From: Centroscyllium fabricii
Lineage: Eukaryota
Direction: 5' to 3'
NCBI GenBank assembly: GCA_051313645.2
Contig: JBNRSN020000009.1
Coordinates: 216,814,001 to 216,878,000 of the forward strand
DNA length: 64,000 nucleotides
Shown piece after piece: positions 3,130 through 44,619 of this stretch. Every line of letters starts with the position of its first letter. Position 1 is the first letter of the stretch. The position numbers were made by a program, and so were the translations under genes. The notes under the pieces are model-generated. The model did no database searches and was not told the origin of the DNA. It worked only from the letters and a program-made list of their open reading frames with translations.

Positions 3130-3210
3130 GGTGGTGGCGGAGGGAGATACAGTGGTCAAGACACTGGGAGAGCTCTCTGCTCTTCTTTGAATAGAGCCAT
3201 GAGATCTTGG
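3130..3210 (-). mobile_element. DeuSINE (SacSINE1-like) fragment, piece 1 of a SINE split by LINE insertions
   Basis: ctgctcttctttgaatagagccatgagatctt resembles the Deu core seen at 45790-45830; continues at 4246-4277 and 12566-12700. Confidence 0.6.
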
Positions 3211-3214
3211 AGTT

Positions 3215-4243
3215 GGAATTAACGGCTCTTTTTCCGAGTGGTAGGCAGTGACTAGTGGGGTACCGCAGAGATCGGTCCTTGGGCCCCAGCTATTCAAAAT
3301 ATATATTAAATGATCTAGACGAAGGAACTAGATGTAATATCTCCAAGTTTGCAGATGACACAAAGCTGGGTGGGGGCATGTGTGCTGTGAGGAGGATGCT
3401 GAGAAACTCCATGATTTGGACAGGCTAGGTGATCGGGCAGAAGCATGGCAGGAGCAGTATAATGTGGATAAATGTGAGGTTATCCACTTTGGTGGCAAAA
3501 ACAGGAAGGCAGATTATCTGAATGGCAGTAGATTGGGAGAAGGGGAAGTGCAACGAGACCTGGGTGTCCTTGTGCACCAGTCGCTGAAGGTGAGCATGCA
3601 GGTGCAGCAGGGTATGTTGGCCTTCGTAACAAGTGGGTTCGAGTACAGGAACAAAGATGTCCTGCTGCAGTTGTACAGGGCCTTGGTGAGATCAGAGTAT
3701 TGTGTGCAGTTTTGGTCACCTTATGAGGAAGGATGTTCTTGCCATGGAGGGAGTGCAGCGAAGATTCACCAGACTGATACCTGGAATGGCAGGAAGGACG
3801 TATGAGGAGAGATTGGGTCGATTGGGCTTATACTCGCTGGAGTTTAGATGAATGAGAGGGGATCTCATTGAAACTTATAAAATTCTGACAGGACTGGACA
3901 GACTAGATGCAGGAAGAATGTTCCCGATGGTCAGGGAGTCCAGAACCAGGGGTCACAGTCGAAGGATAGGGGGTAACCCATTTAGGACAGAGATGAGGAG
4001 GAATTTCTTCACCCAGAGAGCGGTGAACCTGTGGAATTCTCTATCACCGAAGGCCGTAGAGGCCAATAGATTAAATATATTCAAGAAGGAGTTAGATATA
4101 TTTCTTAAGGCTAAAGGGATCAAGGGATATGGGGAGAAAGCAGGGACAGGGTACTGAATTTCAATGATCAGCCATGATCACATTGAATGGCGGAGCAGGC
4201 TCGAGGGGCCGACTCCTGCTCCTATCTTCGATGTTTCTATGTT
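3215..4243 (+). mobile_element. CR1 LINE (HER1-like), 5'-truncated, RT C-terminus plus 3' tail
   Basis: Peptides [45 protein letters not shown]; tail atgatcagccatgatc...ctcctgctcctat...tttctatgtttc; frameshifts. Confidence 0.92.
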
Positions 4244-4599
4244 TCAACAGGCAGACAGTGTCTCGGTTTAACGTTTCTATAGGTATATAAAAAGGAAAAG
4301 ATTATTGAAAGTAAATGTGGGTCCCTTACAGACTGAGACAGGAGAAATTATATTGGGGAATAAGGAAAAGGCAAAGAAATGAAACAAATACTTTGTGTCC
4401 ATCTTCACGGAAGACGTCGCAAAAAACTTCCCGGAAATAGTGGCGAACCAAGGGTCTCATGAAAATGAGGAACTGAAAGATATTAGCATTAGTAAAAAAT
4501 ATAGTACTGGAGTAATTAATGGGACTGAAAGCCAATAAAATCCCCTGGACCCGATGGCCTACATTGTAGAGTTTTGAAAGAGGTGGCTATAGAGATAGT
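4061..4599 (+). repeat. Copy 1 of a ~540-bp direct duplication flanking the Gypsy element
   Basis: Near-identical to 9383-9917 (about 4 substitutions and one 4-nt indel by eye). Confidence 0.95.
4278..4599 (+). mobile_element. CR1 LINE fragment (target of the Gypsy insertion)
   Basis: CR1 ORF2-like sequence (aaatactttgtgtccatcttcac, ccctggacccgatggcctaca) continuing at 9598-10121 and 11282-12565. Confidence 0.85.
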
Positions 4600-4890
4600 T
4601 GTGGTAACCCTTTTATGTAACTGTTTTACCACTGTATTATTGTGCCAATAATGGGCTGTGCAGATGTAAGGCACAGCCCTGTAACCTGTGTAATACTGTT
4701 GGGAGCCAGGTCAGCCACACCTCTAACTCCTCCCCCAGGTGAGGCCCTTTATAGGTGGAAACTGACCGAGGCTCCTCATTCCTGTACAGAAGTTCGTTCC
4801 GGAGGGTAGCTCCGTTCTTAGCGATTAAAAGCCTTTAGTTTCGGTAACTACTCGTCGACTCTTTTAATCCGAGATATTGACGATACGTCA
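4600..4890 (+). repeat. 5' LTR (291 bp, TG...CA)
   Basis: TGTGGTAACCC...TACGTCA; TATA-like tttata near 4748; ATTAAA at 4824-4829; 4 visible differences from the 3' LTR. Confidence 0.93.
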
Positions 4891-4914
4891 ATTTTAATCG
4901 CTAAGTATTTTTAA

Positions 4915-7900
4915 ATGGAGAGCAGCGCAGTTAAACCTGAGAAGCTGGACATCAGTCCCCAGGACCTGGCCGCTGCTACCACGTTCGAACACTGGTTCGG
5001 CCTCCTGGAGGCCTACATGGACGCCGCCAAGGCTACATCGGACAGGAACAAACTGCAGGTCCTCCGGTCGAGGATCTCCAGCAGGGTATTCTCCCTCATC
5101 AGAAACGCCTCAACCTACACAGCGGCTGTACTACAACTACGAAAATGCTACGAGCGCCCGGTCCATTCGGTCTACGCCCGACATGTGCTTGCGACCAGAT
5201 CTCAGCTACCGGGTGAGTCCAATGAGCAGTTCGAGCAAGCGCTCCAGGCCCTGGTACGGGTCTGTGGCTGCCAAGCCAGAACAGCTGAAGAGGAGGCGAA
5301 TCTCCTCGTTCGGGACGCTTACGTTACGGGACTAAGGTGTGTGGAAGCCCGCCAGCGGCTACTGGAAAGAGACACTCTGTCCCTCGAGGAGGCGATTAAG
5401 ATAGCCAACTCAGTAGAGGGGGCCCGAAACAAGTTACAGGCGTACAGCGGCACTAACCCGCAAGCCTACGACATATGGGCCGCGCCACAACGGGCCCAGG
5501 CCTGGGCAGCACCACAACGGGCCGAGACCCCCACGATGGCTGCGACAGCCACAAAAGATAAGCGCTGCTACTTCTGCAGCCAGGGACTGCACCCAAGAGC
5601 GAGATGCCCAGCCAGGACAGCGACCTGCGAGAGATGCGCTAAGAAAGGTCATTACGCTAAAGCCTGCAGATCAGCTCCAGCAGCGCCTAACCCAAGGTAC
5701 AACAGTGCAGCCTGTGAGAGCACCGACAGACACCAGGTAAGCTGCAATAGCAGCGCGATCCAGCGACGGTCCGGGGGTAGACAACAAGCGCCCCCATCTC
5801 CCACCCCGATGCGGCAAAGGCCGGCCAAGCGCGACCCAACGCGGCCGGCTGCGTGCGAATCACGGGCACCGCCAACCCGACCACCACGGCCCTCTGCGTG
5901 CGAATCACGGGCACCGCCAACCCGATCACCGCGGTCCGCTGCGTGCGAATCACGGGCGCCGCCAGCGCGCTCACAGCGGCCCACCATGTGCGAACCCCCG
6001 GCGCCGCCATTTTGTATCCAGGGCCCCTCCATGTGCGCCGCCATTTTGTATCCAGAGCCCCGCCATGTGCGGGCCAGGGGCGCCGCCATCTTGTATCCAG
6101 GGCCCCACCATGTGCGAGCCAGGGGCGCCGCCATCTTGTGTACAGCCCCGACCAGCAAGGGCCCCACGCACACGGAAACACACGGCTGCGGCAGCCAGAA
6201 TCAGAGTGAACCAGGACAGGCCACATACCCTGTCTAACTCTATAATGACAATTAAGATTAACGACTACACTGTTAACTGCCTTTTTGACACAGGAAGCAC
6301 TGAGAGTTTCGTACACCCCGATACAGTGCAGCGCTGCGGACTGCAGGTCCGGCCCACTAACTACCAAGTCTCCCTAGCTTCACAGTCCCACACCGCGGAC
6401 GTCACCGGCTACTGCTCCGTCACGCTCACCGTCAAGGGGCGCGTGTACCATAATTTTAAATTGTATACCCTCCAGCAGTTGTGTGCCCCAGCCTTACTAG
6501 GTTTGGATTTCCAGTGCCACCTCAAGAGCGTGACAATGGAGTTCGGCGGGACCTTGCCCCCCCTCACCGTCAGTAGCCGGGACAATCCCTTCCCAAAGCG
6601 GAGCCCGGCCTGCGGCCTGTCCACCCTGAAAATCGACCGCCCCTCGCTGTTCGCCAACCTCGATCCGAAGTGCAAACCCATTGCTACTAAGAGTCGGCGG
6701 TACAGTGAGGGGGATCGCACGTTTATCAGGTCGGAGGTCGGGCGGATGCTGAAGGAGGGGATAATTGAAGCCAGCACCAGCCCCTGGCGTGCCCAAGTTG
6801 TAGTGGTGAAGTCTGGCGAGAAACAGCAGCTGGTTATCGATTACAGCCACACTATCAACCGCTACACCGGGCTCGACGCCTACCCCCTTCCCCGCATCTC
6901 AGACATGGTCAACCAGATCGCCCAGTACAAGGTGTTCTCCACGATCGACCTTAAATCGGCGTATCATCAGATCCTGATTCGGAAAGCCGACCGCCCCTAC
7001 ACCGCCTTCGAGGCGAACGGTCGGCTCTACCACTTCCTCCGGGTCCCCTTTGGCGTGACCAACGGAGTGTCAGTGTTCCAACGGGAGATGGACCGTATGG
7101 TTGACCAAAATGACTTGCAGGCCACTTTCCCTTACCTGGACAACGTGACCATCTGCGGCCACGACCAGCAGGACCACGATGCCAATCTGGCCAAATTCCT
7201 CGACAAATGTGTCTTTAATACGGACCGGCTCGCCATCCTCGGATACGTGGTGGAGAACGGGGTCCTCGGCCCCGACCCACAGCGTATGCGACCCCTGCAA
7301 GAACTGCCCCTACCTCACAACCCCAAAGCCTTGAGGAGATGCCTAGGATTTTTCTCCTATTATGCACAATGGGTCCCACAGTTCGCAGATAAGGCTAGAC
7401 CACTCCTCAAGGCTGCCGTCTTCCCCCTTTCTGTAGAAGCCCAAACGGCATTCACAAGGATAAAGGAAGATATTATCAAGGCGACCATGCTCGCTGTTGA
7501 TGAATCCATCCCTTTCCAGGTGGAGAGTGACGCTTCGGACTTTGCCCTTGCTGCCACCCTGAATCAGGCAGGCAGGCCCGTAGCGCTTTTCTCCCGCACC
7601 TTACAGGGACCCGAAACTCGCCACTCCGCAGTGGAAAAGGAGGCCCAGGCCATCGTGGAGGCAGTGCGCTACTGGCGTCATTACCTGGCCGGTAAGCGTT
7701 TTACCCTGCTCACCGACCAATGGTCGGTGGCGTTTATGTTCAATAATAAACAACGGGGTAAAATCAAGAATGATAAGATCCTGCGGTGGCGGATCGAACT
7801 CTCGACTTACGAGTATGACATTCTTTACTGACCAGGTAAACTCAATGAACCCCCGGACGCACTGTCCAGGGGAACGTGTGCCAGTGCCCAGCTAGACCGG

Positions 7901-9103
7901 CTGAAGGACCTCCACGACCGCCTTTGCCACCCGGGTGTCACCAGACTCGCCCACTTCGTTAAGTCCCGTAGCCTCCCCTACTCCATCACAGAGATCAAGG
8001 CTATGGCCCGAGAGTGCCCTGTCTGCGCCGAGTGCAAACCCCACTTTTTCCGGCCAGACACGGCGCACCTCATTAAGGCCACCCGCCCCTTTGAACGTCT
8101 CAGCGTGGACTTCAAAGGCCCCCTCCCTTCCACCGACCGCAACTCATACTTCCTCACGGTAGTGGATGAGTTCTCCCGCTTCCCCTTCGCCTTCCCCTGC
8201 GCAGATATGACGAGCGCAACGGTGATCAAACACTTCACCACGCTGTTCGCCATTTTCAGTCTCCCCAGCTACATCCATAGCGACCGGGGGTCATCGTTCA
8301 TGAGCGATGAACTGCGCCAGTTTCTGCTCCAGAAAGGGGTTGCCACGAGCAGAACGACCAGTTATAACCCCCGGGGGAACGGCCAGGTAGAAAGGGAGAA
8401 TGGGATCATTTGGAAGGCGGTCACCCTGGCTCTCAAGTCCAGAGGCCTTCCAGTGTCCCATTGGCAGGCAGTCCTCCCAGACGCGCTGCACTCTATACGC
8501 TCTCTATTATGTACTGCTACTAACGCCACCCAGCACAATCTGATTTTCTCCTTCCCCAGGAAATCGACTTCGGGGACAGCTCTTCCTCCATGGCTGACAA
8601 CTCCGGGGCCGGTTTTGCTTAGAAGACATGTCCGAAGCCACAAGACAGACCCCCTGGTGGACAAGGTACAGCTCCTACACGCAAACCCACACTATGCATT
8701 CGTGCAGTTCCCGGACGGGCGTGAGGACACCGTGTCCATCAGGGACCTGGCTCCCGCAGGAAGCACCACCGCAGAGCCCCTGGCCGGCCAGCAGGCCGCT
8801 CAGCCACTGCATCCAGAAAACCCACCAGACACACAATGGCCCCTGAGCTTCCCAGAGCCCCGGCAGTGGCCAGTACAGAACTACGACCCGGACCAGCCGG
8901 ATCCATCGCCACCAGAAGCCACGGCACCCGATCAGCGGTCACCACCGGCAGATGCGAGTGGTACGAACCAGGAGGCACCACCACCAACACCGGAACGCCG
9001 GCGGTCCTCCAGGCAGACACGACCGCCGGACAGACTGATCATGAACTGTTCGACCCATTCACCCCCCCCCCCCCCGGACTTAAAATTTTCAAGAAGGGGT
9101 GAA
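4915..9103 (+). pseudogene. gag-pol polyprotein of the Gypsy element (disrupted)
   Basis: Gag with CYFC..H..C and CERCAKKGHYAKAC; protease LFDTGS; RT LPRI, PFG, YLDN; RNaseH SDASD, EKEA; IN HHCC, DFKGP/HSDRG/QVERENG. Frameshift from a shortened linker repeat near 6030, TGA at 7829-7831 (likely CGA>TGA in YRPGK), apparent short in-frame RT deletion near 7200. Confidence 0.9.
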
Positions 9104-9383
9104 TGTGGTAACCCTTTTATGTAACTGTTTTACCACTGTATTATTGTGCCAATAACGGGCTGTGCAGATGTAAGGCACAGCCCTGTAACCTGTGTAATAC
9201 TGTTGGGAGCCAGGTCAGCCACACCTCTAACTCCTCCCCCAGGTGAGGCCCTTTATAGGTGGAAACTGACCGAGGCTCCTCATTCCTGTACAGAAGTTCG
9301 TTCCGGAGGGTAGCTCCGTTCTTCGCGATTAAAAGCCTTTCGTTTCGGTAACTACTCGCCGACTCTTTTAATCCGAGATATTG
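9104..9383 (+). repeat. 3' LTR, lacking the terminal 11 nt
   Basis: Matches the 5' LTR up to ccgagatattg; terminal acgatacgtca absent. Confidence 0.93.
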
Positions 9384-9917
9384 GCCAATAGATTAAATAT
9401 ATTCAAGAAGGAGTTAGATATATTTCTTAAGGCTAAAGGGATCAAGGGATATGGGGAGAAAGCAGGAACAGGGTACTGAATTTCGATGATCAGCCATGAT
9501 CACATTGAATGGCGGAGCAGGCTCGAGGGGCCGACTCCTGCTCCTATCTTCGATGTTTCTATGTTTCAACAGGCAGTGTCTCGGTTTAACGTTTCTATAG
9601 GTATATAAAAAGGAAAAGATTATTGAAAGTAAATGTGGGTCCCTTACAGACTGAGACAGGAGAAATTATATTGGGGAATAAGGAAAAGGCAAAGAAATGA
9701 AACAAATACTTTGTGTCCATCTTCACGGAAGACGTCGCAAAAAACTTCCCGGAAATAGTGGCGAACCAAGGGTCTCATGAAAATGAGGAACTGAAAGATA
9801 TTAGCATTAGTAAAAAATATAGTACTGGAGTAATTAATGGGACTGAAAGCCAATAAAATCCCCTGGACCTGATGGCCTACATTCTAGAGTTTTGAAAGAG
9901 GTGGCTATAGAGATAGT
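9383..9917 (+). repeat. Copy 2 of the ~540-bp flanking duplication
   Basis: ggccaatagattaaat...gagatagt repeats 4061-4599, after which the CR1 continues (ggatgcattgg). Confidence 0.95.
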
Positions 9918-12565
9918 GGATGCATTGGTTATCATTTTCCAAAATTCCAGAGCTTCTAGAACGGTTCCCGTGGATTGGAAGGTAGCAAATGTAACCCTGA
10001 CTATTTAAGAAAGGAAGGAGAGAGAAAACGGGGAACTACAGACCAGTTAGCCTGACATCAGTAGTAGGGAAAATGCTAGTATCTATTACTAAGGACGTGG
10101 TAACAGGGCACTTAGAAAATAGAAAATGCTGGAAACACTCAGGTCAGGTAGCATCGTGGAGAGAGAAACAGAGTTAACGTGACCCTTTGTTAGAACTGGA
10201 AAAAGTTAGAGAAGTAACAGATTTATAAGCAAGTGCGGGGGTGGGGAAAGGGAGGAAAGAACAAAGGGAAGCTCTGTGATAGGCTGGAAGACAAGATTAA
10301 AAGTCAAAAGGGATAATGGTGCGAGGCAAAAGGAGATGGTAATGGCACAAGTTAAGAAACAAAGGATGACTAGATGAGGTGGAAATGGAAATGGCAGAAT
10401 CAACAGCTGCCATCTGAGAAAGAAATATAGGGGCCGAAGTTGTAGTCTGAAATTGTTGAACTCTGTAGTGTCTAATCGAAAGATGAGGTGCTGTTCCTCG
10501 AGCTTCATTGAACAGTGCAAGAGGCCGAAGACGGAGAGATCAGAGTGGGTGTGGAGCGGAGAATTAAAGTGACAGGTGACCGGAAGCTCAGGGGCATTCT
10601 TGCGGAATGAACGGAGGTGTTCCGCAAAGTGGTCACCCAATCTGTATTTGGTGTCCCCAATGTAGAGGAGACCGCATCGTGAGCAGCGTATACAGTATAC
10701 TAAATTGCAAGAAGTACAAGTAAATCGCTGTTTCACCTGGAAGGGGTGTTTGGGGCCCTGGACAGTGGGAAGGGGGGGAAGTAAAAGGGCAGGTGTTGCA
10801 TCTTCTGCTCTTACACAGGAAGGTGCCGGACAAAGGGGAAGGGTGTTGGGGGTGATAGAGGAGTGGACCAGGGTGCTGCAGAGGAAGCAGTCCCTTTGGA
10901 ATGCTGACAGGGGAGGGTTGGAGAAGATGTGTTTGGTGGTGGGATCACGCTGGAGGTGGTAGAAATGGCGGAGGATGATCCGTTGAATGTGGAGGCTGGT
11001 GGGGTGAAAGGGGAGGACAAGGTGAACCCTATCGTGGTTCCGGGAGGGGAAGGGATGAGAGCAGAAGTGTGGGAAATGGAACAGACATGGTTGAGGGCCG
11101 TGTCAACCACGGTAGAGGGGAATCCTCGGTTGAGGAAAAAGGAAGACATTTCGGAAGTACAAGTATGGAAGGTGGCACCGTCAGAACAGACGCAGTGGAG
11201 ACGGAGAATGGAATAGAATTCTTACAGGAAGCGGGCTATTTGTTATTTCAGCTTTCCAGCATCCGCAGTAATTTGCTTTTGACTTAGAAAATAATAGGAT
11301 TGGGCAGAGTCAACACGGATTTATGAAAGGAAAATCGTGTTTGTCGAATCTGTTTTTTGAGGTTGTAACTAACAATAGGTAAAGGGGAACCAGTGGATGT
11401 GGTGTATTTGGATTTTCAGAAGGCATTGGATAAGGTGCCATGCAAGAGGTTATTAAACAAAATTAGGGCTCATGGGATTGGGGGGGTAATACACCAGCAT
11501 GGGTTGAGGATTGGTTAACGGACAGAAAACAGAGTAGGAATAAACAGGTCATTTTCCGGTTGGCAGACTAACTAGTGGGGAACCGCAAGGATCAGTGTTT
11601 GGGCCTCAGCTATTCACAATCTACAATGATTTGGATGAGGGGACCAAATGTAATATATCCAAATTTGCTGATGATACAAAGCTGGGTGGGAATGTAAGTT
11701 GTGAGGAGGATGCAAAGAGGCTGTAAGGGGATATAGACAGGCTAAGTGAGTGGGCAAGAACATGGCAAATTGAATATAATGTGGAGAAATGTGAAGTTAT
11801 CCACTTTGGTAGGAAAAATAGAAAGGTGAATATTTTTTTAACGGAGAGAGATTGGGAAATGTTGGTGTTCAGAGGGACCCAGGTGTCCTTGAACATGAAT
11901 CACTGAACGTTAACATGCAGGTACAGTAAGCAATTAGGAAAGCAAATGGTATGTTGGCCTTTATTACAAGAGGATTTGAGTATAAGGTGTCTTACTGCAA
12001 TTATATAGGGTCCTGGTGAGACCACACCTGGAGTATTGTGTACAGTTTTGGTCTCCTTTCTGAAGGCTATACTTGCCATAGAGGGAGTGCAACAAAGGTT
12101 CACCAGGACTGATTCCTGGGATGGGGGGATTGTCCTGTGAGGAGAGATTGAGTAGACTAGGTCTATATTCTCTGGAGTTTAGAAGAATGCGAGGTGATCT
12201 CATTGAAACATAGAGAATTCTTACAGGGCTTGACAGGGTAGATGCAGGGAGGATGTTCCTTCTGGCTGGGGAGTCTAGAACCAGGGGTCACAGTCTCAGA
12301 ATAAGGGGTCGGCCATTTACGACTGAGATGAGGAGAAATGTCTTCACTCCGAGGGCGGTGAATCTTTGGAATTCTCTACCCCAGAGGGCTGCGGAGGCTC
12401 AGTCGTGAGTATATTCAAGACAGAGATCGACAGAGTTTTGGATATTAAGGGAATCAAGGGATATGGGGATAGTTCAGGAAAGTGGAGATGAGGTAGAAGA
12501 TCAGCCATGATCTTATTGAATGGCGGAGCAGGCTCGAAGGGCCAAATGACCGACTCCTGCTCCTC
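9598..12565 (+). mobile_element. CR1 LINE, degenerate ORF2 RT plus 3' tail, interrupted by a Penelope element
   Basis: Motifs [31 protein letters not shown] and the CR1 tail at 12500-12565; many frameshifts. Confidence 0.9.
10122..11281 (-). mobile_element. Penelope-like element (GIY-YIG endonuclease end), 5'-truncated, with short inverted terminus
   Basis: ORF 10206-10736 FTCTSCNLVYCIRCSRCGLLYIG..RL..H; upstream FLNRGFP; flanked by the repeat acttagaaaata (10110-10121, 11282-11293). Confidence 0.9.
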
Positions 12566-16290: not shown

Positions 16291-16552
16291 CTGAGCCAAA
16301 CTGACAAGATGATAATGTCAGCTAGCTTGGGGCAGCAGAGGTAAATTTTCAGGACAACACCAATTCAAATCTTGGCCAGATACCAGGTATGCACAGGCCA
16401 TCTCTTTTATGTGTTGCTGATCTAATGTGCGGAATGGTCATATATAGATTCTTATTTTAAAATATATTACGCAATTCAGACTGATAATAATGAGCTTGAC
16501 GTCTGTGGTGGGAGAGGGTGGAAGAAACCTTCTCTGTTAAGCTGCTGTGTAC

Positions 16553-16822
16553 CTGATTGGACCATGAGCCTAGCTGACGATTGCATAGAACCAATCCCAT
16601 TTTCCACCATGCATTGATACATCCCAGCATCCTCAGCACCGAGTCCCACAATCTTCAGTCTGTTCCCAGAGACCAAGTGTCGAAGGTCAGCTTGGACAGT
16701 GGCTGCGTTGTGGTACCAGGTGATATTGGGCCGCGGATTTCCGCGAGAATCGCAAGTTAAACGTGCTGTGGATCCCACGGACAGAGTCAGCTCTCGCAGC
16801 CCTTTGACGATTGTAGCAGGTT
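16553..16822 (-). CDS. CDON: CDON exon encoding Ig4 (270 nt, phase 1-1)
   Basis: EPATIVKGL..LTCDSRGNPRPNITWYHNA..DAGMYQCMVENGIGSMQSSARL; acceptor tttttgtag, donor gtacac. Confidence 0.95.
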
Positions 16823-18029
16823 CTACAAAAAGAAAGTAAAATAACTTTACATTCAAGTAGATTCTTCTAGCAGAAGTGCTGAATGTAATATCTCTCAGTC
16901 CGGGTCTCGGTGTCAGTGAGTCTCTCTCTGTTGCACCACCCACACACTCTATACTGGCCTGTTCCTGTTCCGCCTGGCTGCTCAGCCCCTGATGCTGTGC
17001 ACTTGCCATGCTGACAGTGCACCCACTTTTTCACTCTGTAGGGTAGAAATCACAATTGGTGCTGTTCTTGTAACACTCACATGCTCGGAGATATTTTATA
17101 TGCAGGTGACCGTAATTTCTACCCTAGTACGTCAGATGGTAAATCTAACTCGGGTGATTACTACCAACCTATAGGACTTTTTAAACAGAAGTTCAGTACT
17201 CAGACAGCCAATGGCACTACCTACAGTGATTTGTCACAAGATGTTGCACCACAAAAATTACTTGCCTTACTTATTGGACAAATAAAAATGGTCTGCATTG
17301 TTGGCACTCTGTGGGCCACAATGAATCCCTGTGATGACCCATCAGGATCCCATGACATATACATCCACGTACACCAAGCCAGGGAATTAAATAGCTTTTA
17401 AAATCACATTTAAATGGGAAATCATCTCGTTCACGACTGCGTGTGTGACCCAAGTTGATAACTACAGAGGTTTTTAGTCAGTCAGCTTACTGTTGTATTT
17501 GGCTTCACCATATTGTACTTCACCTTAAAGTAAAAACGAGGGCAATTTTTTCAAATTTGTGCACCCAATAGGCAACTGTGTGTGCCAGGAGCTCAAATCA
17601 AGAGTTCAGTTGCTCAACCGGTCAAATTCTGCAGAGTTCAGTACTGAGCCATGCAGGAAGCTTTCATCTGCAGTCTGTGCAAAGCCAGCCAGCGAAGGGC
17701 CTCAATGCCCCTATGGGAATATAAACCAGACAGATTCCAGCTCCCGATTGGCCTTCCAGGGCCTCAGCTGGTATGGGGAAGTGGGGGAGGGGGGTGGGGT
17801 GCTGAATGTTGGGTCTGGACAGGATCGGGCACAACTGTGATGCCAAATATCTTTCCAACACTAAACATCAAGGCTCACACATGAAGAATGTCCACTTAAG
17901 ATGAGGTATTGGAGGGGTTAGCTGGCACAGTGGGCTAATATGCCAGTATAAGTCAGCACCCTCAGCAGAGGAGGGAGGAAACTGGAAAAGAGGAAAACAA
18001 AAAAGATATAAATAAAGGAACTCACTCAC

Positions 18030-18317
18030 CATGAACAGTCACTGTGTAGCTTGCAGACACGGGCTCCCCCACTCCATTTTCAGCGATACACAAGTAGCTC
18101 CCAGCATCCATTGCTCCGGCTTGATCGACAACCAGGTTACTGTGAAAGAGTTTCCACCGCTCATTCCTAGACACGTCGATACCATCTTTTAGCCATCGGA
18201 CGCGCGGGGTTGGGACTCCACTTGCTACGAATTCCAGGATCAGAGGACCGTGTTGCATCACCGTTACATTCTGTGGGATTGTGGGGTAGATGACGTGTGC
18301 AGGGTTGGCTGCAGAGC
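18030..18317 (-). CDS. CDON: CDON exon encoding Ig3 (288 nt, phase 1-1)
   Basis: HVIYP..LILEFVASGVPTPRVRWLKDG..DAGSYLCIAENGVG; acceptor ttccccacag, donor gtgagt; in frame with neighbouring exons. Confidence 0.94.
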
Positions 18318-18577
18318 CTGTGGGGAAAGATAGGAAGAAATCACATTGTGCAGTGTCCAACCACCTCGAAACATCTAGGCCAAGTTGCTCATACACATCC
18401 CAACACTCACCATACAGCGGGCATACAAAGAAAGAAAGAGAATGCACGCAAGAGAAATGGGAAGAATGTACAGGAGAAAGCTGCTGCTGATAGGGCAATA
18501 AAGGCGACTGGAGTGCAAGCGAAGGAAGGCTACAGAGAAAGCAAGAGCATAAGCAAGGGAAAGTAAAATGTTGAAGT

Positions 18578-18965
18578 ACGGTGGCACAGTGGTTAGCATT
18601 GTTGCCTCACAGCACTGGAGACCCGGGTTCAAATCCAGCCTCGGGTACTATCTGTGTGGAGTTTGCACATTCTCCCCGTGTCTGCGTGGGTTTCCTCCGG
18701 CTGCTCCGGTTTCCTCCCACAGTCCAAAGATGTGCGGGTTAGGTTGATTGGCCAGGATAAATTGACCCTTAGTGTTAGGGGGCTTGAATATGTGGGGATA
18801 GGGTGGGATATGTGTCAGTGTAGGCTCGATAGGGATCGAGGGATATGGGGAGAGGGCAGGGACGGGGTGCTGGGTTTGGATGATCAGCCATGATCTCATT
18901 GAATGGCGGAGCAGGCTCGAAGGGCCGAATGGCCTACTCCTGCTCCTAGTTTCTATGTTTCTATG
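18578..18965 (+). mobile_element. HE1-type V-SINE, full length
   Basis: tRNA head (A box tggcacagtgg, B box ggttcaaatcc), V domain gtgtggagtttgcacattctccccgtgtctgcgtggg, CR1-derived tail. Confidence 0.92.
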
Positions 18966-39715: not shown

Positions 39716-42491
39716 ACAGGAGGCAGCATTCGCAATTACTAAAAGCACCGCTCCACATTTGGCCACAGATCGGAGTACAGATAGCTGCACTGGAAGGGCA
39801 GGGAGCATTAGTGAGGGTGGGGTAGTGGGAGAGAAAATAGATGTCTCAGCTTTGGACAAGTTGGAGTTCATAAATGAGAGGCTGGGAAGGATAACATTGG
39901 AGAAATTGAGCCTCAAGGTGACCAAGTGTGGATAAGAGATTCAGTGATGGGTGTGAAGTTGGGCAATGTCACTGTCTTGGTCTTGATTACAATGTGGGAA
40001 TTGAAGCTGAACTCTGGGCCAAGGTTTCACACTGTCTGATTTGACCAGCGTAGCCAAGGAGGGGCACAGACTCTTTATAGTGGGTCTGAAAACAAAGACT
40101 TCAGTATTCCTCATTGAGCCGCAGGAAATTTTGACTAATCCACAACTTGACATCAGACAGGCACACTGTCAGCATAGAAGCGGCAGCAACATAAAACTTG
40201 ATTTCATCATACTGATGTGTCTGGAATTACATCTCTGAGAAACAGCATGCAGAGGAGGAAGGAGGGATCAAGGAGAGATTCTGGAAGGACTCCAAAAATG
40301 ACCATGCAGAAATAAGAGAAGCTATTGCTGGAGGTGCACTGCTGTGTTTGAACAGGTTGGAGTGGAATCACATGAGGGCAGCCCCGCAGAGATAGGCAAT
40401 GAAGGAGGATGGTATGGCAACTGTATGACCGGCTGTGTAGAGGTCAAGAAAGAACTCCGAACTTGCTTCCTTTTTTAAAATGCCGTTCACAACCTGAGGA
40501 CATCCCAAAGTGCTTTACAGCCAATGAATTACAAGGAGAGATAATGCACCATGGTCACAGTCAGAGGATGTTATCAGCACTAGCATTCTTTACTAGGACA
40601 TCAAAAGTGACAAAATTAGGTTTTATAAAAAATTTAATAGATTAAAAATTAATTTCACTGTGACCTGATTAAATGTACTCATCGACTTGTCTGTTGGGTC
40701 TTTCAGTGCTTCCCTTAGCTGTTTTATTTCAAGGTTTCAGCCAATTTAATACTCCTAACATCTGACTGGATATCCCCCACCCCTGCTCTCTCCCCCCCAC
40801 CCCCACAGAGTGTTTACAACATCTCCTAGCATGCACCATAATTCTTTACCTTTTTGAAAAGGACTTTGGAACAAACTGCAGTGAATGCTCAAAGCTTTAT
40901 TTCGATAAGTGTCACATTATGAACAAAAACTCATTCTGTTATGATCGTACACAACAACTGAGATTAACACCTGAAGTTTCTTTGTTGACAGAAAGCAAAA
41001 TAACCTTTATTTCAAGAATGGATTTATTTTTTTCAGCGGAAAGATTGAAGATGATTTCAATTTAATTAACCAGGAGATTTTAAACATAACTGGAAGATGA
41101 ATTTTAACTATTAATGGTGTACTTGTGTGCATGTGCATTTATGAGAATTTGTTTATGGACATTTGTGTTTATTAAAATCTGTATGTCAGCAAATTCACTA
41201 ATGGTGCACTAAGTGTTTTATGTCAGGAACACAAAGACAGGAATCTCTGATGATGAGAAACGCAGTGGGAGTAGGCACAGGAGTGGTGTGAATAGAAGAA
41301 TGAAATGTGGGAACTCAGTGGGGAGGTTATCAGATCCCAGCAACCCCCAATGCTTCCAGTCCCCCTCACCAGGACACAACCCCCAATGCTTCCAGTCCCC
41401 CTCACCAGGACACAACCCCCAATGCTTCCAGTCCCCCTCACCAGGACACAACCCCCAATGCTTCCAGTCCCCCTCACCAGGACACAACCCCCAATGCTTC
41501 CAGTCTCCCTCACCAGGACACAACCCCCAATGCTTCCAGTCCCCCTCACCAGGACCCCCCCCCCCTCAATGCTTCCAGTCCCCCTCACCAGGACACACCC
41601 CCCAATGCTTCCAGTCCCCCTCACCAGGACACAACCCCAATGCTTCCAGTCCCCCTCACCAGGACACCCCCCCCAATGCTTCCAGTCCCCCTCACCAGGA
41701 CACCACCCCCAATGCTTCCAGTCCCCCTCACCAGGACACCCCCCCCCCTCAATGCTTCCAGTCCCCCTCACCAGGACACAACCCCCAATGCTTCCAGTCC
41801 CACTCACCAGGACACCCCCCGCAATGCTTCCAGTCCCCCTCACCAGGACACCACCCCCAATGCTTCCAGTCCCCCTCACCAGGACACCACCCCCAATGCT
41901 TCCAGTCCCCCTCACCAGGACACCCCCCCCCCTCAATGCTTCCAGTCCCCCTCACCAGGACACAACCCCCAATGCTTCCAGTCCCACTCACCAGGACACC
42001 CCCCCCTCCCAATGCTTCCAGTCCCCCTCAGCAGGACACAACCCCCAATTCTTCCAGTCCCCCTCACCAGGACACAACCCCAATGCTTCCAGTCCCCCTC
42101 ACCAGGACACAACCCCCAATGCTTCCAGTTCCCCTCACCGGACAACCCCCCCAATGCTTCCAGTCCCCCTCACCAGGACACAACCCCCAATGCTTCCAGT
42201 CCCCCTCACCAGGACACCCCCCCCCCCAATGCTTCCAGTCCCCCTCACCAGGACCCCCCCCCCCCGCAATGCTTCCAGTCCCCCTCACCAGGACACCCCC
42301 CCCCCAATGCTTCCAGTCCCCCTCACCAGGACACCCCCCCCCCAATGCTTCCAGTCCCCCTCACCAGGACACAACCCCCAATGCTTCCAGTCCCCCTCAC
42401 CAGGACACAACCCCCAATGCTTCCAGTCCCCCTCACCAGGATACAACCCCCAATGCCTCCAGTCCCCCTCACCAGGACACCCGCCCCAATG

Positions 42492-43163
42492 GAAGCAGAA
42501 GACACACCCCCATCTTCATCCAAGGGGCTGAGGTGGAAAGGGTGTCCAGCTTCAAGTTCCTCGGGGTCCACATCTCGGAAGATCTCTCCTGGTCACTAAA
42601 CACCTCCTCTCTGGTTAAGAAGGCCCAACAGCGCCTGTACTTCCTAAGGAAGCTGAAGAAAGCCAGGCTGTCATCTGGCATCCTCTCCAACTTCTACCGC
42701 TGCACAATAGAAAGCATACTGACCAGCTGCATCACTGTCTGGTATGGTAATTGCACTATCTCGGACCGGAAAACCCTGCAGCGGGTAGTCAAAACTGCCC
42801 AACGAATTACCGGTACACAGCTACCGTCAATGGAAAGCATCTACCTCAAACGCTGCTTACGGAGGTCTATGAACATTATTAAAGACCCCACACACCCCAG
42901 CCACAGTCTGTTCGCCCCCCTGGAGACGCTACAGAGTAATTCGCACCCGCACGACTAGATTTCAGAACAGCTTCTTCCCCAGGGCTGTCAGACTCCTGAA
43001 CTCTAAAAAAGAAACTCCGGTACCTGCACGCCTGATAATGTACTTTACTGTATGCAATTTGCATGTAATTTATTTGCACTACTCTCGGGAGAGTCGAGTC
43101 TTCGTCTCGTTGTATTGTACTAGTACTCTGCAATGACAATAAAACTTGAATTGAATTGAATTG
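42492..43163 (+). mobile_element. Rex1/Babar LINE 3' fragment, copy 1
   Basis: VERVSSFKFLGVHISEDLSW..KKAQQRLYFLRKL..FYRCTIESILT; (TTGAA)n tail. Confidence 0.92.
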
Positions 43164-43502
43164 AATGCTTCCAGTCCCCCTCACCAGGACACAACCCCCA
43201 ATGCTTCCAGTACCCCTCACCAGGACACCCCCCCCCCCCCCAATGCTTCCAGTCCCCCTCACCAGGACACCCCCCCCCCCCCAATGCTTCCAGTCCCCCT
43301 CACCAGGACACAACCCCCAATGCTTCCAGTCCCCCTCACCAGGACACAACCCCCAATGCTTCCAGTCCCCCTCACCAGGACACAACCCCCAATGCTTCCA
43401 GTCCCCCTCACCAGGACACAACCCCCAATGCTTCCAGTCCCCCTCACCAGGATACAACCCCCAATGCCTCCAGTCCCCCTCACCAGGACACCCGCCCCAA
43501 TG

Positions 43503-44174
43503 GAAGCAGAAGACACACCCCCATCTTCATCCAAGGGGCTGAGGTGGAAAGGGTGTCCAGCTTCAAGTTCCTCGGGGTCCACATCTCGGAAGATCTCTCC
43601 TGGTCACTAAACACCTCCTCTCTGGTTAAGAAGGCCCAACAGCGCCTGTACTTCCTAAGGAAGCTGAAGAAAGCCAGGCTGTCATCCGGCATCCTCTCCA
43701 ACTTCTACCGCTGCACAATAGAAAGCATACTGACAAGCTGCATCACTGTCTGGTATGGTAATTGCACTATCTCGGACCGGAAAACCCTGCAGCGGGTAGT
43801 CAAAACTGCCCAACGAATTACCGGTACACAGCTACCGTCAATGGAAAGCATCTACCTCAAACGCTGCTTACGGAGGTCTATGAACATTATTAAAGACCCC
43901 ACACACCCCAGCCACAGTCTGTTCGCCCCCCTGGAGACGCTACAGAGCAATTCGCACCCGCACAACTAGATTTCAGAACAGCTTCTTCCCCAGGGCTGTC
44001 AGACTCCTGAACTCTAAAAAAGAAACTCCGGTACCTGCACGCCTGATAATGTACTTTACTGTATGCAATTTGCATGTAATTTATTTGCACTACTCTCGGG
44101 AGAGTCGAGTCTTCGTCTCGTTGTATTGTACTAGTACTCTGCAATGACAATAAAACTGGAATTGAATTGAATTG
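43503..44174 (+). mobile_element. Rex1/Babar LINE 3' fragment, copy 2
   Basis: Same breakpoints as copy 1, offset 1011 bp, 5 visible substitutions. Confidence 0.92.
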
Positions 44175-44619
44175 AATGCTTCCAGTCCCCCTCACCAGGA
44201 CACAACCCCCAATGCTTCCAGTACCCCTCACCAGGACACCCCCCCCCCCCCCCCCAATGCTTCCAGTCCCCCTCACCAGGACACAACCCCCAATGCTTCC
44301 AGTCCCCCTCACCAGGACACAACCCCCAATGCTTCCAGTCCCCCTCACCAGGACACAACCCCCAATGCTTCCAGTCCCCCTCACCAGGACACCCCCCCCC
44401 AATGCTTCCAGTCCCCCTCACCAGGACACATCCCCCATACTCCAGTCCCAGATCCGAGGTCCCCCTCAGTGCTCACAAATCCCTAACCCACACTCCCAGA
44501 CCTTTGTATCACACATCATGCTTGGAACTCACCTGTTCTTCCTACTCCTCCACTGCTGCCTGACCCCAGGACCACCCCCAATGTTCCGACACCCTGTGAC
44601 CTTCCTCTCCAATGCTCCG

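Follow-up and report, generated by a model that had tools for sequence, protein, structure and literature searches.

A Ty3/Gypsy element of Centroscyllium fabricii between direct host duplications of about 540 bp, clipped at its right end: a probable one-ended integration, with a leader suggestive of self-priming

The window, that is, the whole stretch of DNA analysed, is 64 kb long, derives from Centroscyllium fabricii and contains no N characters. It carries a 4.8-kb Ty3/Gypsy element (4600-9383) between direct host duplications of 539 and 535 bp. Host DNA before the duplication is designated A, the two flank copies B and B', and host DNA after the second copy C. The parts of the locus are as follows.

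3210 to 4244, plus strand: 3' part of a host LINE, unbroken across 4060/4061 and collinear with another copy.
4061 to 4599, plus strand: flank copy B, a LINE 3' end followed by part of the interior of a second LINE.
4600 to 4890, plus strand: complete 5' LTR of 291 bp, TG..CA, its end set by analogy with three related loci (L003, L005 and L007).
4915 to 6237, plus strand: gag open reading frame, containing tandem repeats and two knuckles of the CCHC type.
5741 to 7831, plus strand: protease-RT-RNase H frame, ending in an in-frame stop (7829-7831) and with a gap of 12 codons near 7200 when aligned to relatives.
7832 to 9124, plus strand: integrase frame (rve, Integrase_H2C2), with no chromodomain detected.
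9091 to 9103, plus strand: polypurine tract and GAA linker ahead of the 3' LTR; the GAA/TG pattern also occurs in relatives.
9104 to 9383, plus strand: 3' LTR without its last 11 nt, delimited by LTR alignment.
9383 to 9917, plus strand: flank copy B', delimited by alignment to B.
9918 to 10070, plus strand: C, the native continuation of a LINE RT fragment, with an open frame across 9917/9918 and ungapped homologues.

In pairwise alignment B and B' are identical in 531 of 539 columns and differ by four substitutions (4145, 4163, 4552, 4566) and one 4-nt indel near 4250. The LTR pair (4600-4879 and 9104-9383) is identical at 276 of 280 positions. With two minisatellite arrays set aside, these are the only two same-strand, non-overlapping pairs of at least 95% identity and at least 100 nt in the 64 kb, and they are not a product of chance. 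No further LTR copies were found within the window. The left junction of the element is precise (ATAGT/TG). At the right junction a single G is common to LTR and flank (4879 = 9383 = 4061), an overlap of 1 nt. The size of the clip presumes an LTR end at 4890, which is placed from relatives and is not readable from the window alone: in L003, L005 and L007 a terminal CA closes the LTR, and next to it comes an ATTT leader after the 5' copy or the target-site duplication (TSD) after the 3' copy, which puts the end here at 4890 and therefore the clip at 11 nt. An earlier note on this DNA had described the flanking duplication of about 540 bp, the precise TG junction, a 3' LTR short of its last 11 nt including CA, flanks differing by about four substitutions and a 4-nt indel, and LTRs differing at four positions; each of these observations is confirmed. 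A normal integrase product has both TG..CA ends intact and a TSD of 4-6 bp; the window copy does not.

The host sequence is native at both outer boundaries. Positions 3210-4223 align collinearly at 73% with another LINE copy at 11532-12564, passing through the A/B boundary; at the B'/C boundary the RT frame is open, and alignments of LINE homologues run across it ungapped in 16 of 17 cases, with no host loss at the left TG junction. The LINE is presumably of the CR1/HER1 type; named LINE matches include Callorhinchus and Hypanus, and a PDB search with the LINE peptide gave 0 matches. The composite junction near 4250, where the LINE 3' end meets the internal fragment of the second LINE, is present only in B and B'. 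Both also have an 8-nt gap that is absent from four other aligned LINE copies, and the remaining LINE copies of the window share at most 157 nt with the flank, at 71-86% identity. The possibility that B' is an unrelated LINE copy is rejected on the shared composite junction and gap; by these marks B' is a true copy of B. From the native A/B and B'/C boundaries, the unique composite junction and the shared gap it follows that the empty site would have been A-B-C, that the left end involved no loss of sequence and that B' was copied from B.

Elsewhere in the window, exons of immunoglobulin I-set domains lie on the minus strand at 16479-17030 and 18025-18606, and the element may be in or near a multi-Ig gene. 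A tandem unit of about 1 kb, 97% identical, is formed by 42153-43441 and 43164-44449; it is composed of a 36-bp minisatellite and a repeat ending in TTGAA units.

Two direct LTRs, a polypurine tract and the order gag-PR-RT-RH-IN identify a Ty3/Gypsy LTR retrotransposon, and the best PDB match is Ty3 Gag-Pol (E 7.6e-42). An atlas search returned generic integrase clusters only; the nearest named integrases among the matches listed are from stingrays. The copy is broken, because of the 12-codon gap near 7200 and the in-frame stop. Tandem repeats of 45, 34 and 22 bp occupy the gag-pol overlap region (5840-6139). No chromodomain was found at the integrase C-terminus of the window element or of the six relatives scanned, and among 120 listed matches none carries PF00385, taken here to be the chromo accession. 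By pattern, Gag has two CCHC arrays in the window element and in four of six named relatives, and one array in the other two. According to PMC2577118, Mag and Micropia/Mdg3 elements usually have two such arrays. The likeness to the Mag lineage (PMC2577118, PMC6238403), as those sources characterize it, extends to the PR-RT-RH-IN order, metazoan hosts and an env not seen; the LTR start TGTGG resembles, unlike Mag, the CsRN1 motif (PMC3601003). The element is tentatively called Mag-like and without chromodomain, a label taken from the Gag CCHC arrays.

A scan of GTDB contigs gave 46 pattern matches, among them seven related loci (L001-L007). Their contigs contain animal-type Gypsy elements and satellite arrays, and the loci are probably animal DNA present as host contamination in bacterial MAGs. 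The relatives are distant, with 47-64% integrase identity, and do not belong to the same family. L001, L002 and L004 are circular collapsed contigs without readable flanks, and L006 is a fragment. In the three loci with readable flanks (L003, L005, L007), both LTRs are present, the TG..CA ends are intact and the TSD is 5 bp. All three measurable relatives being normal, the window copy is aberrant and not typical of its lineage. In L007 the start of the 3' LTR and the polypurine tract recur as about three degenerate tandem repeats (8078-8300).

The earlier note's account of the element had passed over a second feature of the lineage, the absence of a tRNA site and a self-pairing leader.

4892 to 4905, plus strand: leader at the primer-binding-site position, without a TGG-type tRNA site.
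4817 to 4830, plus strand: LTR arm with ATTAAA (4824), exact complement of the leader and candidate self-primer.
Paired-arm sites in relatives: L001 372-385; L002 3275-3287; L003 4361-4374; L004 3746-3760; L005 4341-4354; L007, within the LTR at 5555-5672.

By sequence inspection rather than comparison with a tRNA library, the leader starts with ATTT or TTTT, not TGG, in seven of seven elements. Rfam and tRNA scans of the 64-kb window gave 0 matches. Pairing between LTR and leader is present in seven of seven elements (window, L001-L005, L007), is 13-15 nt long, starts 1 nt after CA and covers an AATAAA-like hexamer. The window arm matches its leader over 14 nt; a match of 13 is reached by 1 of 5000 shuffles and one of 14 by none. 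Across six elements (L007 was not shuffled) the observed length is reached by 0 to 2 of 2000 shuffles. The arms were found by seeking complementarity, and weight is placed on the shuffles and on the fixed offsets. In six distinct elements, L005 being left out with an arm identical to that of L003, 78 of 78 pairs form over 13 positions, against 21-38 of 78 in slid controls; at 10 of the 13 positions more than one Watson-Crick pair type occurs, as compensatory changes. The self-primer definition of PMC6317226 asks for at least 10 nt of LTR complementary to a leader whose start lies 0-5 nt past the LTR; here all seven elements have 13-15 nt at offset +1. Tf1-like self-priming would also have the arm at the 5' end of the RNA, with RNase H cleaving it; a TATA-like motif (4748) and an Inr-like one (4776) could place the transcript start about 40 nt before the arm.

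On this evidence it is likely that the lineage primes its own copying without a tRNA, by Tf1-like self-priming. As a rival function, the pairing over the hexamer would mask the 5' poly(A) signal instead of priming. Known self-priming elements (Tf1/Sushi, Tcn1, TAR; PMC7175516, PMC6317226) likewise have no tRNA site and a post-LTR leader complementary to an LTR segment; the present elements differ in the lack of a chromodomain and in an arm of 13-15 nt over the poly(A) hexamer. One LTR difference (4820 against 9324) falls within the arm, where the match to the leader is present in the 5' LTR but lacking in the 3' LTR. There is a second near-complement of the arm inside the LTR (4862-4870), by which the RNA 3' end could be modelled to fold differently from the 5' end.

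The aberrant copy itself agrees with a published mechanism. As described in PMC5041404 for integration of one end only, synthesis by the host starts from the free 3' end, with neighbouring DNA as template; the other end is normal, the aberrant end is often truncated, duplications are hundreds to thousands of bp in length, and short homology at the aberrant joint is usual, not universal. Here one end is precise and the other is truncated and joined to a long local duplication. The earlier note had proposed a one-ended integration finished by host repair, and this is still the best reading: probably the U3 end was inserted by integrase, and the U5 end was attached by host repair at a point 539 bp upstream. 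From the empty site A-B-C, the U3 (left) end of the Gypsy cDNA would have been joined by integrase exactly at the B/C boundary; the U5 (right) end would have stayed unintegrated and lost 11 nt; and the clipped end would have been joined by host repair synthesis to the start of B, giving A-B-element-B'-C. Beyond the anatomy, the scheme would have the event take place at integration and the U5 end fail as the self-primed end. The clipped U5 end is the one whose position a self-primer would set. In Tf1, about half of the cDNAs retain a single-stranded primer-site tail at the self-primed end (PMC11042837), and by analogy such a tail may be linked to the clipped junction.

Timing is not readable from the sequence alone. 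An event at integration is favoured mainly because the break lies 11 nt from the element end; a random later break in an element of about 4.8 kb would have a chance of only 0.2-0.6% of hitting the final 11-30 nt. The earlier note had also taken the similar divergence of flanks and LTRs as a sign of one event. The divergences (4/535 and 4/280; Fisher p 0.46) are consistent with a single event but carry little power, with wide intervals of 0.2-1.9% for the flanks and 0.4-3.6% for the LTRs. Clustering of three of the four LTR differences is not significant (p 0.14). Against a one-ended integration stand the direct microhomology of 1 nt, though sites of 4-6 nt are available within 1 kb upstream, and the tandem duplication at 42153-44449, by which local duplications arise here by other routes too.

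Two local structures lie at the clipped end.

4876 to 4892, plus strand: 7-bp hairpin across the LTR end, absent from the folded relatives.
9379 to 9390, no strand assigned: 12-nt palindrome across the new junction, arm of 6, with a 1-nt direct overlap.

The clip does fall inside a terminal hairpin, as the earlier note had remarked, but the full 7-bp hairpin requires 2 nt past the LTR end and is found in none of five relatives folded (L007 not among them); as a conserved cause of the clip it is not supported. The palindrome, also described there, is present and rare under one null (0.2% of random joins), in a test made post hoc. The join site also has a 5-nt inverted match, of a kind seen at 2 of 1000 positions upstream. 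When the clipped end is folded back on B', the energy is ordinary: 399 of 1980 nearby joins, and 22% of 4819 joins farther away, are as stable. The inverted duplex is in the top 2% by rank, and fold-back is retained only as a lead. Palindrome and inverted match could reflect brief wrong-strand priming followed by a switch across GGCC, and the palindrome is weak evidence.

Unlikely, but the strongest of the rivals to a one-ended integration, is a later rearrangement: a normal insertion with a 5-bp TSD, then a break close to the end of the 3' LTR, mended with the empty allele as template, or insertion into a pre-existing segmental duplication followed by deletion ('pseudo-TSD', PMC5488345). Its final structure would be identical, B and B' do have changes of their own, and the flank divergence is nominally below that of the LTRs (0.75% against 1.4%, not significant); the nearby tandem duplication of about 1 kb is also in its favour. 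It requires two events, not one, with a breakpoint arising independently no more than 11 nt from the LTR end, at the low frequency given above if random, and no TSD remnant is seen at the junction. Quite improbable is an assembly artefact, in which an element-carrying haplotype was joined to an empty one or a read was chimeric. The difference between B and B' is at a possible level of heterozygosity and the break is close to a repeat edge; yet the window has no gap and no other such pair outside tandem arrays, and the element looks old (four LTR differences, the stop, the 12-codon gap), which makes it less likely that the same animal also has an empty allele. Overlap and k-mer assemblers are not known to join sequences through a 1-nt overlap, which likewise counts against an artefact. 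Very improbable is a family habit of long duplication, or of joining the right end through primer-site homology, the route of integrase-independent Tf1 insertion (PMC11042837). The leader does resemble a self-priming site; yet long duplication as a lineage trait is rejected on the 5-bp TSDs in three of three measurable relatives, the start of B' is not leader sequence, and the LTR end is lost, not retained.

One-ended integration with a long duplication is a known kind of event, natural germline cases included (PMC5488345, PMC4422153). Aberrant ASLV and HIV-1 integrations, as presented in PMC5041404, share one normal end, one truncated end and a host duplication of hundreds of bp; the present case differs as a natural germline Ty3/Gypsy event, with no drug or engineered end and with 1 nt of direct homology. 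Eight HERV-K(HML-2) loci with duplications of 13-450 bp are listed in PMC5488345, which offers the pseudo-TSD alternative; among HERV-K duplications are 7p21.2 (250 bp), 6p25.2 (111 bp) and 21q21.1 (450 bp) (PMC5488345, PMC4422153). In PMC4422153 such loci are ascribed to inefficient integration, and the 450-bp case is a 3'-truncated provirus. These are likewise germline elements with long direct host duplications, some 3'-truncated, and with the same pseudo-TSD ambiguity; here, in contrast, the element is a Gypsy, both LTRs are present, 539 bp exceeds all eight rows tabulated in PMC5488345, and the empty allele is reconstructed only.

A literature search, with subscription papers and Repbase outside its scope, found no prior reports of long host duplications at Gypsy elements or of self-priming in a Mag-like lineage. 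Repbase notes are said to contain self-primed Gypsy families in marine invertebrates. By integrase similarity the lineage would extend over rays, cnidarians, echinoderms, nematodes, flatworms, insects and crustaceans. A wider proposal, speculative and rather unlikely, is that a widespread non-chromovirus lineage of animal Gypsy elements self-primes through an arm of 13-15 nt, with masking of the 5' poly(A) signal as a second function of that arm, and that its error-prone U5 cDNA end leads at a measurable rate to one-ended insertions with long host duplications, making it a natural local-duplication mutagen; on the link between self-priming and frequent aberrant ends bear one aberrant locus and three normal ones.

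Read as a one-ended integration, the locus would add a natural Ty3/Gypsy insertion, in the germline of a fish, to the retroviral cases of this process and its completion by host repair. Copies of this kind would escape LTR finders based on TSDs, and the element could be lost by B-B' recombination, which would leave what looks like an empty allele. The conserved, covarying pairing of LTR and leader offers a testable, probable case of self-priming outside the groups treated in the cited self-priming papers.
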